A stretch of DNA of 38,026 nt from Vulcanimicrobiota bacterium (GCA_003135555.1 PLCF01000076.1:1-38026); one strand, 5' to 3'. Shown: positions 2,907 to 5,815, counted from the first letter of the stretch. Made by a program: numbers and translations. The notes: a model not told the origin generated them from the sequence alone.

Positions 2907-3509
2907 ATGGCGCGGACCGCGGACGATCGGCGGCGCGTGGACCTGTTGGAGCGCATCGTGGACTACGTGATGGAGAACGGTCTCTCTGATCTTTCGTTGC
3001 GCCCGCTCGCCGGAGCGGTCGAGACCAGCCCGCGCGTGCTGCTCTACTACTTCAACTCAAAAGAAGAGCTGATCACCGAGGTGATGGCGGGCGCGCGCGA
3101 ACGCCAGCGTGCGATCTTCGACACCCTGCCGCGGCGCGCCGACTCCTACGCCGAGACCGTTCGCGCCGCGTGGGCGCTGATGAGCAAGCCCCAGCACGAG
3201 CGCGTCTTTCGGCTGTTCTTCGAAGTCTACGGGCTCGCGCTGCAAGATCCCAACCGCTTCCCCGGTTTCGTAACGCGCGCGGTCGACGACTGGCTGGCGT
3301 ACCTCGGTGCCGGTGCGCGCAGCGACGGGCACACCGCCGCCGACGCGCGGGCGATCGCGACGGTGATCCTGGCCGGCTACCGCGGCTTCTTGCTGGATCT
3401 GTGCGCGACGCAGGACCGTAAGCGCATCGGGCGCGCGGTCGAACTGTGGATCGCCGCGCTCGATGCCATCCCCTCGCCCAAGGAGCTCGCCGGTGCAAGG
3501 CGCGGCTGA
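2907..3509 (+). CDS. TetR/AcrR family transcriptional regulator
   Basis: N-terminal HTH LSLRPLAGAVETSPRVLLYYFNSKEEL. Confidence 0.92.
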   Translation: MARTADDRRRVDLLERIVDYVMENGLSDLSLRPLAGAVETSPRVLLYYFNSKEELITEVMAGARERQRAIFDTLPRRADSYAETVRAAWALMSKPQHERVFRLFFEVYGLALQDPNRFPGFVTRAVDDWLAYLGAGARSDGHTAADARAIATVILAGYRGFLLDLCATQDRKRIGRAVELWIAALDAIPSPKELAGARRG

Positions 3510-4734
3510 AACGACACCTCGTCGCGCGGCGGTGATCTTCGTCTTCATCACCGTCGCACTCGACATGATCGCGCTGGGCGTGATCGCACCGGTCTTCGTC
3601 CCGCTCATCGAAGGCTTCATGCACAACGACGTCGAGCGCGCCGCCGCGGTCGTGGGCGCGTTCGGCACGGTCTTCGCGCTGATGCAGTTCTTCTGGGCGC
3701 CGTTCCTGGGGGTGCTCTCCGACCGCTTCGGGCGCCGGCCGGTCATCATCGTGTCGAACCTCGGCATGGCCGTCGACTACGCGGTCATGGCGCTCGCGCC
3801 GAACCTCTTCTGGCTGTTGGCCGGCCGGATCGTCTCGGGCGTCACGTCGGCGAGCGCGACGGCGGCGGGCGCGTACATCGCCGATGTGACGCCGGCGGAG
3901 AAGCGCGCCGGTGCGTTCGGGATGATCGGTGCCGCGTTCGGGATCGGATTCGTGCTAGGCCCGGCGCTAGGCGGGCTATGCGGGCAGATCGATCCGCGGC
4001 TGCCGTTCTGGGTCGCCGGCGCGCTGTGCCTGCTCAACGGGATCTACGGCGCCTTCGTGCTGCCCGAATCGCTGTCACGCGAACATCGCGCCATGCGCTT
4101 CATGTGGGCCAAAGCAAATCCGCTCGGCGCGCTGCGGTTGCTGCGCAGCCATCCGGAATTGAGCGCGGTCGCGGCCTCGACGTTTCTGAGCACGCTGGCC
4201 GGGATCGTGATGCAATCGACCTGGGTGCTCTACGTCACCTTCCGCTTCGGCTGGGGGCCCGGCGCGACGGGAGCCTCGCTCGCGCTCATCGGGATCTGCT
4301 CGTCGGTCGCGCAGGTCGCAGTCGTCGGTGCGTACGTGAAACGCTTCGGCGAGCGCGTCGCGCTCTTTTCGGGGATCGCGTTCGGGGCGATCGCCCTGGT
4401 GATTTGCGGTTGGGCGCCCAACGGCTGGCTGTTCTGCGTCGGGATCGTCCCGCTGTGTCTATGGTCGCTGGCGCCCGCCGCCGGACAAGCGATGATGAGC
4501 CGCCGCGTGACGCCGCAGGAGCAGGGTGAGTTGCAAGGCGCCATCGGTTCGATACGCGGCCTCGCCGCGCTGTTCGGCCCGTTGATCTTTACCACCGCGT
4601 TCGCAATCGGGGTCGCCCGCGGCGTACCCGGCGCAGCCTGGTTTTTGGGCGCGGCGATCATCTGCGCGGCCGTACTCCCGGTCCTGCGCGAGCACGGAAA
4701 AGAAGAAGAACCCGCAGTCGCCGGCGCGGCGTAG
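3493..4734 (+). CDS. MFS efflux transporter, TetA/TCR (DHA1)-like
   Basis: Motif A GVLSDRFGRRPV, motif C GFVLGPALGG, about 12 TM segments. AAGGAG SD before GTG 3493, overlapping the TetR gene end. Confidence 0.9.
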   Translation: MQGAAETTPRRAAVIFVFITVALDMIALGVIAPVFVPLIEGFMHNDVERAAAVVGAFGTVFALMQFFWAPFLGVLSDRFGRRPVIIVSNLGMAVDYAVMALAPNLFWLLAGRIVSGVTSASATAAGAYIADVTPAEKRAGAFGMIGAAFGIGFVLGPALGGLCGQIDPRLPFWVAGALCLLNGIYGAFVLPESLSREHRAMRFMWAKANPLGALRLLRSHPELSAVAASTFLSTLAGIVMQSTWVLYVTFRFGWGPGATGASLALIGICSSVAQVAVVGAYVKRFGERVALFSGIAFGAIALVICGWAPNGWLFCVGIVPLCLWSLAPAAGQAMMSRRVTPQEQGELQGAIGSIRGLAALFGPLIFTTAFAIGVARGVPGAAWFLGAAIICAAVLPVLREHGKEEEPAVAGAA

Positions 4735-4740
4735 ATCTGC

Positions 4741-4772
4741 GAAAGAGGCCGCCGAATCGCTCCGGCGGCCTC
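4741..4772 (-). terminator. Intrinsic terminator-like hairpin between the converging MFS and SEC-C genes
   Basis: Perfect 10-bp stem GAGGCCGCCG (4745-4754) / CGGCGGCCTC (4763-4772) with an 8-nt loop, followed by a short TTTC tail on the minus strand. Confidence 0.65.
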
Positions 4773-4776
4773 GCAC

Positions 4777-5025
4777 TCACTCGCGGAAAGAAGTAGGCTC
4801 GCTCGACGCCGTCATAGCGGCCGCTGCGCATACAGCACTTCTTGAAACCGGCGGCCGGAGCCGCAAATGCAGGGATCGTTGCGACCGAGCTTTTCGATGA
4901 GCTCTTTGTCGCCGTGCACGAAGCGGTCGCCGCGCTTGACGTGCGTTTCGGACGGGTAGCCCTTGCGGCGCTTGCTAGAGCGCGTAAAAGCTGGGCAGTT
5001 CGTCGTAGTCGATGTCGTGTCGCAT
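4777..5025 (-). CDS. Small SEC-C motif (zinc-binding) protein split over successive frames; full 81-aa product needs three +1 shifts
   Basis: AGGAGGGT SD then ATG 5025. [14 protein letters not shown] is in one frame and KKCC in the +1 frame. Shift sites are TTT-T (4989-4986), TTT-C (4847-4844) and TTT-C (4789-4786). The final TGA at 4779-4777 lies just before the terminator. Confidence 0.7.
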
Positions 5026-5053
5026 GGTAGACCCTCCTGTGACAACGCCGCCT

Positions 5054-5082
5054 ACGCTACACGAAGCTGCCCGTAGCGTCAA
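5054..5082 (-). promoter_or_regulatory. sigma70-type promoter of the SEC-C gene (TTGACG-17-TAGCGT) with an overlapping 7-bp inverted repeat
   Basis: -35 at 5082-5077, -10 at 5059-5054. IR is ACGCTAC (5054-5060) / GTAGCGT (5073-5079). Confidence 0.6.
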
Positions 5083-5086
5083 GCCC

Positions 5087-5815
5087 TCATAGCTTCGCGG
5101 CGGCTTGGGCGTCGACGAACCAGCGTAGGTCGCCCGCGCGCGGGTGGACGAGTTGAGCGGGGTACAAGTCGGGTTGTTTTGGCCCGCCGAGCACGGCGCG
5201 CAACGCGTCTGCCTTCTCGGCGCCGCCAGCGGTGATCGCGACGTTGCGCGCGTCGTTGATCGCGTGCGGCGTCAGCGTGATCCGCCACTTGCCGAGCTGC
5301 GGAACGTAGTGCGCGATGCAGCGCCTTTCCCGGTCGATCGCCCCGACGGTGCCGGGGAACAGTGAAGCGGTGTGTCCCTCGGGCCCCATCCCCAGCAACA
5401 CGAGATCGAGCCGCGGGCGTTCGCCCAGTTGGAGGTGGAGCACCGCGTCGTAGTCAGCCGCCGCTGCCCCCGGATCGTCTTCGCCGCGCATGCGATGAAC
5501 GCAACCGCCATCGATCCCCAAGCGGTCGAGCAGCGTCTCGCGGTTCATCTTGTAGTTGGAATCCGGATCGCTCGGCGGGACGCAGCGCTCGTCACCGAAC
5601 CAAAAGACGACCCGGCCCCACTCGACGCTCGAGCGTCGCGGCTCGGCGACCAGCAGCGCATTGATCGCGCGCGGCGTCGAGCCGCCGGCTAGCGCGACGT
5701 GCGCAAGGTCGCGCTGCGCGAGCGTTGCCCGCACCAGCGCAACCACGTGGTCGGCCACTGCCGCGGCGAGCGCTGCCGAATCGGGCAGAACGGCGACGTG
5801 CTGACGCTCCGCCAT
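5087..5815 (-). CDS. pgl: 6-phosphogluconolactonase
   Basis: ALAGGSTP, FGDERCVPP and LLGMGPEGHTASLFPG motifs. Last gene of the OPP operon, start ATG 5815. Confidence 0.93.
   Translation of the reverse strand: MAERQHVAVLPDSAALAAAVADHVVALVRATLAQRDLAHVALAGGSTPRAINALLVAEPRRSSVEWGRVVFWFGDERCVPPSDPDSNYKMNRETLLDRLGIDGGCVHRMRGEDDPGAAAADYDAVLHLQLGERPRLDLVLLGMGPEGHTASLFPGTVGAIDRERRCIAHYVPQLGKWRITLTPHAINDARNVAITAGGAEKADALRAVLGGPKQPDLYPAQLVHPRAGDLRWFVDAQAAAKL

Follow-up and report, generated by a model that had tools for sequence, protein, structure and literature searches.

A small SEC-C gene of a Vulcanimicrobiota bacterium with three conserved +1 frame changes at TTT-pyrimidine codons, and the bacterial gene family in which such breaks recur

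Programmed +1 frameshifting on a shift-prone codon is already a known kind of event. In prfB (CUU_UGA_C), the tRNA in the peptidyl (P) site of the ribosome re-pairs one base forward beside a slowly read 0-frame codon, and the gene has a single site, an obligatory Shine-Dalgarno (SD)-like stimulator and an autoregulatory loop of its product, release factor 2 (RF2). To our knowledge, very few cases of programmed +1 frameshifting are known in bacterial cellular genes, with one site each. The gene considered here belongs to a family of small SEC-C genes and lies on the minus strand of a 38,026-nucleotide stretch of DNA from a Vulcanimicrobiota bacterium (GCA_003135555.1 PLCF01000076.1:1-38026; hereafter the window, from the genome labelled G000). 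A direct reading of 4600-5200 takes its open reading frame (ORF) from an ATG at 5025-5023 through three +1 frame changes, each at a TTT followed by a pyrimidine, to a TGA at 4779-4777. The likeness to prfB would lie in the P-site re-pairing and in the regulatory logic. Unlike prfB, the SEC-C family has up to four sites, mostly at UUU and mostly without an SD, the sites in the window never stand before a stop codon, and the product is no translation factor of known function.

Closer to the present gene in codon choice are the UUU-pyrimidine sites. As far as they are treated in the relevant part of a 2016 review, +1 frameshifting in bacteria comes about particularly readily at UUU_Ynn, also when there is no stop codon, and bacterial UUU_Y sites include that of an activator of the Mesorhizobium integrative and conjugative element (ICE), with its +1 shift at UUU, and that of Yersinia YopN-TyeA (PMC5009743). 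These two, as described there, share with the family the same shift codon, a place in cellular bacterial genes and the lack of strong RNA structure, and differ in having one shift each, by which two ORFs are joined and an additional product arises; the SEC-C family has several serial shifts for its sole complete product, at positions that turn over among lineages. The same part of the review gives the influenza A PA-X site as UCC_UUU_CGU and the amalgavirus site as UUU_CGN (PMC5009743). The first site of the SEC-C family, site N, is often TCC_TTT_CGA (L026, L045, L062, L064, L074, L082, L085 and L097), with the same pattern across the exit (E), P and aminoacyl (A) sites; the PA-X and amalgavirus sites differ in being viral, eukaryotic and single, and the sites in the window have no CGN in the A site. 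PA-X and amalgavirus sites shift with an efficiency of about 1%. Nuclear genes of Euplotes and some mitochondrial genes carry many +1 sites with a single inserted T or C, in the account of that review (PMC5009743), which resembles the present case in having several +1 events per coding sequence and T or C as the extra base. There, the shifting is described as a feature of the whole genome that is linked to changes in termination or in the tRNA set, whereas the shifts considered here are confined to one small gene family, TTT_Y being common and unshifted in the other genes of the same genome.

The SD sequence of the window gene, AGGAGG (5033..5038), is read directly 7 nucleotides (nt) upstream of the ATG, whose 0-frame has 16 codons and then TAG at 4977-4975. 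Segment 1, a leader of 13 amino acids (aa) in frame a (4987..5025), has a homologous counterpart in relatives and ends at shift site 1, AGC TTT T|ACG (4986..4989; family site N), where the 0-frame continues TAC GCG CTC TAG. Segment 2, of 47 aa in frame a+1 (4845..4985), encodes the N-terminal core, which is basic, and the SEC-C knuckle as far as its first half. Shift site 2, CGG TTT C|AAG (4844..4847; family site C), lies within the SEC-C motif (RRF|KKCC), with CAA next in the 0-frame and a stop 10 codons on, and leads to segment 3, of 19 aa in frame a+2 (4787..4843), which completes the zinc knuckle with its second half and adds the tail. Shift site 3, TTC TTT C|CGC (4786..4789; family site E), was again read directly, as was segment 4 (4777..4785), which follows it with CGC GAG TGA or RE-stop; since the three shifts total one codon, these last two codons are in the ATG frame, frame a, again. 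Without the third shift, the frame runs for 43 further codons, across a hairpin, to 4658. With each TTTY taken as one step, the joined product is 81 aa long (13+47+19+2); all three of its in-frame TTT codons are the junctions, and its remaining two Phe codons are TTC. Segments 2 and 3 have no start codon in the window. The first-pass annotation of this DNA had proposed the SD, the ATG at 5025, the 16-codon 0-frame, the three TTT-Y junctions and an 81-aa SEC-C product, and re-reading bore out each of the coordinates. A 77-aa ORF from TTG 5045 was tried as the real gene and rejected, its first part being low in GC content at third codon positions (GC3), its last two Cys absent and segment 3 conserved.

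The joined product matches the Pfam SEC-C model PF02810 at residues 48-66 (E 1.3e-9, 38.1 bits against a gathering cut-off of 20.4). Break 2 cuts the motif between CxC and CC, so that no single frame holds a complete knuckle, and the cut-off is reached solely by the joined reading. GC3 peaks in the claimed frame of each segment, at 0.77, 0.83 and 0.79 for segments 1, 2 and 3, against 0.25-0.67 in the other frames. Segments 2 and 3 have ratios of nonsynonymous to synonymous substitution rates (dN/dS) of 0.098 and 0.116, respectively, across ten loci, nine of them distinct, and the variable columns of the same loci are distributed 16/15/56 over codon positions 1/2/3 of the joined frame. Because of these ratios and this codon-position pattern, the frames after the breaks are taken to be translated and under selection.

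Contigs assembled in Logan from four other peat-metagenome runs (X3, X4, X6 and X7) cover 4600-5200 with no inserted or missing letters; the runs belong to four studies, of which that of X3 is possibly the source's own and the other three are different. When 40 relatives were searched in six frames, six other genomes of the genus had the middle segment in one frame and the tail in another, and tblastn with three-frame views of the relatives gave the same frame order, a, a+1, a+2. All three sites (N-C-E) stand at the same columns in 14 distinct sequences from related genomes (L001-L007, L027, L029, L104-L106, L109 and L110; L039, L107 and L108 duplicate three of these), which include loci from the phylum sample and from the named collection. 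Among the carriers of all three breaks is a one-contig genome, G171. Genomes G036, G251 and G292 enter the tallies of relatives only, and no claim depends on them. Judging from these alignments, the recurrence of the breaks in relatives is more than chance. The first-pass annotation had called the gene a serial recoding cassette and had looked to the DNA of homologues for breaks at TTT-Y at the same positions and for selection that changes frame with them; such breaks are present, each frame in turn is under purifying selection, and an error of assembly is excluded.

The same feature extends far beyond the genus. The joined protein retrieves 1130 database proteins, and at least 599 loci were found in species-representative genomes, 80 of which were kept; the closest records with a name are metagenome-assembled genomes (MAGs) of Eremiobacterota/Vulcanimicrobiota, probably the phylum of the window. 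Cultured strains among the carriers include Stieleria magnilauensis TBK1r, Massilia pinisoli JCM 31316, Sphingomonas oligophenolica JCM 12082, Sphingomonas naasensis KIS18-15, Novosphingobium fluoreni DSM 27568, Microvirga sp. 2TAF3 and Acidobacteriaceae bacterium KBS 96. The family proteins are basic and 55-81 aa long, and the loci are spread across many phyla. Intact database forms have 55 aa (MSKRRKG...CCLxSGRF) or 64 aa (...SGRYDGSxRxYYF), and many entries, isolates included, end in wrong-frame tails after GSGRRF. A purpose-written protein-to-DNA aligner that allows frame changes was applied to 89 loci. In its unbiased version, the +1 breaks fell on the same small set of columns again and again and lay almost without exception within a T run, and a version in which TTTY and CTTT were cheap steps explained 214 of the 222 frame changes, 210 as TTT_Y and 4 as CTT_T; three of the remaining eight are CTT_C. 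As controls with other codon sets, TTT_R absorbed 0 events, TTC_N 20, Lys codons 18 and CGN_N 133, the last because an Arg codon abuts the same T run. One event per locus was counted in 10 loci, two in 31, three in 42 and four in 6, and at least one break falls within the conserved core in 79 of the 89. The early caveat that homologues might be uninterrupted holds for single positions, each of which has unshifted alleles, but fails for whole genes, as none of the 89 loci is without a break.

Six columns account for the recurrence. Site N (SF|E/T, before SKRRKG) is present in 59 of the 89 loci, often as TCC/TGC_TTT_CGA; site B (RGF|R) in 2, as TTT_TAG; site C (RRF|KK) in 39, with TTT_CAA in 36; column 65 (CCL|) in 4, as CTT_Y; site D (GRF|DG) in 46, with TTT/CTT_TGA in 29 and TTT_CGA in 16; and site E (YF|RE-stop) in 62, with TTT_TAG in 29. 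After site E, most loci have R-[DE]-stop in the +1 frame, and the others have the closely similar ends R-stop or RE-KD-stop. The next 0-frame codon is a stop in 71 of the 214 events and CGA in 45. Unshifted alleles at these columns are TTT/TTC AAG, TTT GAC, TAC GAC, TTT GAG and TTT AGG, the extra pyrimidine alone being absent; the Phe codons outside shift sites are TTC (170), TTT_R (29) and TTT_Y (16). A -2 slip was rejected, as it would add a second Phe where unshifted homologues have a single Phe per junction.

Site D comes closest to prfB. It is TTT_TGA in 26 loci and CTT_TGA, the core of the prfB heptamer, in 3 (Stieleria and two others); with a stop next in the 0-frame, the annotated 55-aa 'short form' is therefore a termination product. 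On the alignment of these loci, the conserved DGxxRxxYF tail is reached solely by a +1 slip at site D, as in prfB. Viral sequences carry the family as well: IMG/VR holds three loci, all with shift sites, and one viral-contig copy has an extra site at F23, whereas a cultured-phage collection gave no family match. The class-level relative G032 has two equal-scoring copies (C2:1190412-1190614 and C6:31012-31214, the latter L008), each of which has its site at another column (GGC TTT TAG G, RGF|R) and lacks a C-terminal one. Three copies appear to be damaged, L032 by an in-frame stop and a -1 change, L096 by a non-TTT break and L100 by an in-frame stop and a missing Cys codon.

Another line of evidence comes from the genes around the 80 loci, where neighbours within 1.5 kb were identified by a Pfam scan of 150 flanking ORFs, by tblastn with hits and by ARAGORN. 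A tRNA or RNA-repair neighbour (RtcB, Hen1, Thg1 or Ro) is present at 23 of the 80. RtcB is found at six (L036, L040, L056, L071, L082 and L084), Hen1 at three (L045, L064 and L088), a P-loop kinase with a Thg1-like protein at two (L079 and L097) and TROVE/Ro at two (L060 and L067); the rtcB ATG lies a few bases past the final stop of the small gene in L082 and L084, 14 bases in L082 by hand count. tRNA genes were called at 13 of the 80 loci, and seven of these have arrays (14 tRNAs in L062, 11 in L040, 7 in L082, 6 in L047, 5 in L089, 4 in L024 and 2 in L090), against about 3% of random 3-kb windows expected to hold a tRNA, by rough arithmetic from the tRNA density of the window genome. Further neighbours are HNH and PD-(D/E)XK nucleases, TIR and Fic, and a plasmid copy in Candidatus (Ca.) Manganitrophus has an integrase and a SIR2 gene beside it. 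On contig C83, which is another contig than that of the window copy, the window genome also has RtcB, adjoining at least 16 tRNA genes in an array. There (46959-48068 on the minus strand and 48687-50222 on the plus strand), RtcB is divergent from the array, which reaches the contig end and includes a tRNA with a CUA anticodon, called 'Pyl' by ARAGORN, and a tRNA-Leu(GAG) with C33 and A37. One IMG/VR contig of 65,971 bp (L132) has its copy within 12 tRNA genes, among them three for tRNA-Phe(GAA) just upstream.

With the breaks and their conservation, selection on every frame, the motif at the sites and the neighbourhoods established, we infer slippage, its regulation and a role for the protein: it is likely that programmed serial +1 ribosomal frameshifting is needed for full-length synthesis and is itself selected. 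At each site, the P-site peptidyl-tRNA-Phe(GAA) on UUU would re-pair one base forward on UUY, and in a few relatives tRNA-Leu(GAG) would do so instead, from CUU to UUU or UUC (CUU_U or CUU_C); both the re-pairing, suggested by the published UUU_Y motif, and ribosomal slippage as its setting are what we infer from the sequence. The slip would be favoured while the A site waits. Ribosomes that did not slip would end 3 codons past site 1 or 10 codons past site 2, and those unshifted at site 3 would run into the terminator hairpin and leave a non-stop message. Output would equal the three slip probabilities multiplied together; it would be close to nil in normal growth and would rise steeply when A-site decoding is slow or tRNA-Phe poorly modified.

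Control would be exerted at elongation, because a conserved promoter and a strong SD are present that would leave transcription and initiation free. The promoter-like element (5054..5082, minus strand) has a -35 TTGACG at 5082-5077, a 17-nt spacer and a -10 TAGCGT at 5059-5054, and may function as the gene's own promoter; a consensus promoter scanner did not call the element at 5054-5082. TTGAC and TAGnAT blocks are kept upstream of the gene in 11 of 13 related loci, in an alignment read by eye, and AGGAGG or a close variant is kept upstream of the ATG in relatives. A short conserved 5' leader (CGTTGTCCGC-AAGGAGG) follows the promoter-like block TTGAC-N17-TAGnAT in most of the 13, and in the window an inverted repeat, ACGCTAC...GTAGCGT, overlaps the block at 5054-5082. 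At the other end of the gene, a 12-bp GC-rich hairpin followed by TTTC (4745..4772), whose stem is in both the minimum free energy and the centroid folds, lies between the SEC-C gene and a convergent gene of the major facilitator superfamily (MFS; 3463-4734, plus strand) and is probably a bidirectional terminator, to judge by these predicted folds; a terminator scanner made no call at 4745-4772, where the T tract is weak.

Several observations weigh against serial frameshifting as the explanation. None of the sequencing runs listed for this stretch is an RNA run. The leader is weakly constrained, with a dN/dS of 0.60 in the ten loci used above, and the cheap TTTY step may overcall sites N and E, which are the only sites in 10 of the 89 loci. 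No SD-like element precedes the sites in the window, as the first-pass annotation had already noticed in looking for a prfB-like SD, the best anti-SD duplex being -1.7 kcal/mol, at site 2. Just 5 of 30 family site-C loci have an SD-like element, GGGAGG or GGAGG 0-3 nt upstream, and the mean anti-SD duplex across the family is -4.46 kcal/mol in shifted and -3.62 in unshifted loci. The mRNA fold is unremarkable in the window (z -0.28), and the 0-frame codons after its sites are not rare (TAC 19.8, CAA 7.4 and CCG 35.4 per 1000). In-frame TTT_Y is present 1906 times in 1262 ordinary long ORFs of the window genome; default slippage must therefore be low, and three slips in series predict a minute yield. 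The window copy is not beside tRNA or RNA-repair genes, and a tRNA scan of the locus was empty. Finally, an AlphaFold2 model of the protein from 35 intact homologues is poor, with a mean predicted local distance difference test score of 56.5 and of 73-79 in the knuckle.

As for codon usage in general, UUU_Y is avoided in highly expressed genes of E. coli, and the pattern in the window genome is opposite: of the 2736 TTT codons in its long ORFs, 1500 (55%) have C as the next base, and of the TTC codons 15% do.

A sensor is a further step. The cassette may act to gate synthesis of the protein on the state of tRNAs or of decoding, a tentative reading that we hold somewhat short of even chances; it is drawn because copies in other phyla sit in tRNA arrays and head RtcB, Hen1 and kinase-Thg1 operons. 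The first-pass annotation had gone as far as a translation-fidelity sensor with a multiplicative response; the association with tRNA arrays and RNA repair, and the rarity of default shifting at the common TTT_Y, fit this idea, which otherwise stands as conjecture. If slips are regulated, the gene would amount to a simple sensor that needs no protein and responds steeply to tRNA supply, tRNA modification or the speed of decoding, and it would be wired to back-up sets of tRNAs and to enzymes of RNA repair. More doubtful, though worth stating, is the version in which the cassette counts 'empty A-site time', with passage only when the next tRNA or release factor is late or when the non-canonical back-up tRNAs of the arrays, tRNA-Phe with G37 and tRNA-Leu with A37, read Phe or Leu. 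In that event, the full-length protein, and in some operons the rtcB product encoded just after its stop, would be made when tRNAs are cut, depleted or replaced. The 2016 review, in its part on the subject, knows no example of the 'hungry-codon' class of trans-frame protein (PMC5009743), and such a counter would be the first natural one and a translational switch for RNA repair.

Constitutive attenuation without sensing is an unlikely alternative with some points in its favour: leaky slippery-codon mutations would have been kept where the protein is needed in traces or is harmful, the shifting being unregulated. UUU_Y is described as slipping at a low level without a stimulator in the part of the review that deals with it (PMC5009743), and none was found in the window; moreover, sites come and go among about six Phe/Leu columns, as would be seen with repeated single-base insertions after TTT. 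A weaker promoter or SD would be a simpler way to low output, yet the strong SD and the conserved promoter were kept. No locus among the 89 is siteless and the mode is three sites per gene, which argues that the slips themselves are wanted, and the link to tRNA arrays and RNA-repair operons suggests a condition-dependent role.

Another possibility, which we rate as quite improbable, is that atypical tRNA-Phe and tRNA-Leu species of the arrays, as natural decoders that are prone to frameshifting or read quadruplets, read UUU_Y and CUU_Y efficiently and that the gene is expressed along with the array. Modifications at position 37 limit +1 slips, and array tRNAs changed there might therefore be efficient decoders of the sites: array tRNA-Phe has G37 instead of A37 in four of five cases (G000 C83, L040 and two of three in L132), array tRNA-Leu(GAG) has A37 instead of G37 in all three, the G000 array included, and G000 has such an array, the 16 tRNA genes beside RtcB on C83. 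Within the genus, a search for the atypical tRNA-Phe succeeded in 3 of the 7 genomes that have the gene and in 1 of the 18 that lack it, a weak signal (Fisher one-sided p ~0.05, by hand arithmetic and uncorrected for kinship). Yet all the array anticodon loops are of 7 nt, and a four-base anticodon tRNA for UUUY (NAAA) was not found in G000, which is 84% complete. The G000 array tRNA-Phe falls below the Rfam tRNA gathering score, which 11 of the 16 ARAGORN calls in the array reach, and most loci, together with 4 of the 7 gene-bearing genus genomes, show no such tRNA, the MAGs being incomplete. The changes at position 37 could instead serve escape from anticodon nucleases. One ARAGORN call in G000 with anticodon 'ttag' was set aside as unrelated to UUUY.

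It is very improbable that the frames are joined at the RNA level, by transcriptional slippage or editing, or that separate short products are made and no full-length protein. In some Planctomycete leaders there are T7 runs at which -1 or +2 is called for and at which transcription could slip, and members with an internal ATG (MSKRRKG...) and TTT_TGA certainly make the 55-aa short form; the T runs of the window, however, are just 3-4 long, segments 2 and 3 have nowhere to start, break 2 divides the motif and purifying selection acts on segment 3. The leaders in question are those of Planctomycete-type loci L066, L070, L078, L079, L087 and L098, which join the core across T7 and then C, a junction that takes a net -1 (or two +1) in place of a single +1 and for which -1 tandem slippage or transcriptional slippage would serve as well. 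That an assembly error or a decaying pseudogene in the window genome alone lies behind the breaks has next to no probability left and is already refuted: each of the three is one additional base within or behind a T run, as homopolymer errors usually are, but contigs from four other runs lack indels, 14 distinct related sequences have the same breaks, as do isolates of other phyla, and dN/dS is about 0.1 after them.

Serial frameshifting, to return to the favoured reading, would yield a protein whose only recognisable part is its knuckle. The metal-binding domain (MBD) of SecA, which has the same CxC...CC knuckle (PF02810) as YecA and YchJ, binds zinc, SecB and ribosomes, according to the portion of the report that concerns it (bioRxiv 10.1101/613315). 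Unlike these proteins, with which just the 19-residue motif is common, the family has a basic N-terminal core and a DGxxRxxYFRE tail peculiar to itself. NCBIfam has no model for it and gave no curated match beyond the PF02810 motif; models of YchJ, YecA or SecA type reach at best 36 bits or less against cut-offs of 68-267, with the knuckle alone aligning. Outside the knuckle, the protein is predicted to be mostly disordered, and it probably acts with tRNA back-up and RNA-repair functions, as its genomic company suggests. The synthesis of ArfA/BrfA-type factors depends on the state of ribosome rescue. The present protein would resemble them in being small and basic and in a yield that depends on something abnormal in the translation of its own mRNA, and the unshifted frame at site 3 in the window would likewise give a non-stop message; it differs in having no sequence similarity and in its trigger, which would be frameshifting and not mRNA truncation.

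A description of the family was not found in literature on SEC-C, recoding and RtcB, the supplementary frameshift clusters of PMC3711429 lying outside that search, nor in the text of PMC5009743 and PMC3711429. Three features appear to be undescribed in the literature searched: several sites in series within a bacterial cellular gene, positions that turn over among about six Phe/Leu columns although the need for a shift persists, and the connection with tRNA arrays and RNA repair. With one to four slips in 55-81 codons, the positions evolve and the requirement stays, across many phyla. If the slips are regulated, the old question of whether frameshifting induced by starvation or damage ever serves a purpose would become testable in cultured strains. 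Gene callers miss or truncate genes of the family, as the wrong-frame database tails illustrate. The plasmid copy of Ca. Manganitrophus (L139; CP114562.1 90084-90221, also in CP114554.1) is wholly unannotated and is flanked by a tyrosine recombinase gene and by a SIR2 and ATPase pair resembling a defence island.

The neighbours of the window copy are pgl and the convergent gene at 3463-4734, assigned to MFS by Pfam. A 200-aa ORF (2907-3509, plus strand), taken from its N-terminal sequence as a putative TetR-type regulator, overlaps the start of this MFS gene by 47 nt.

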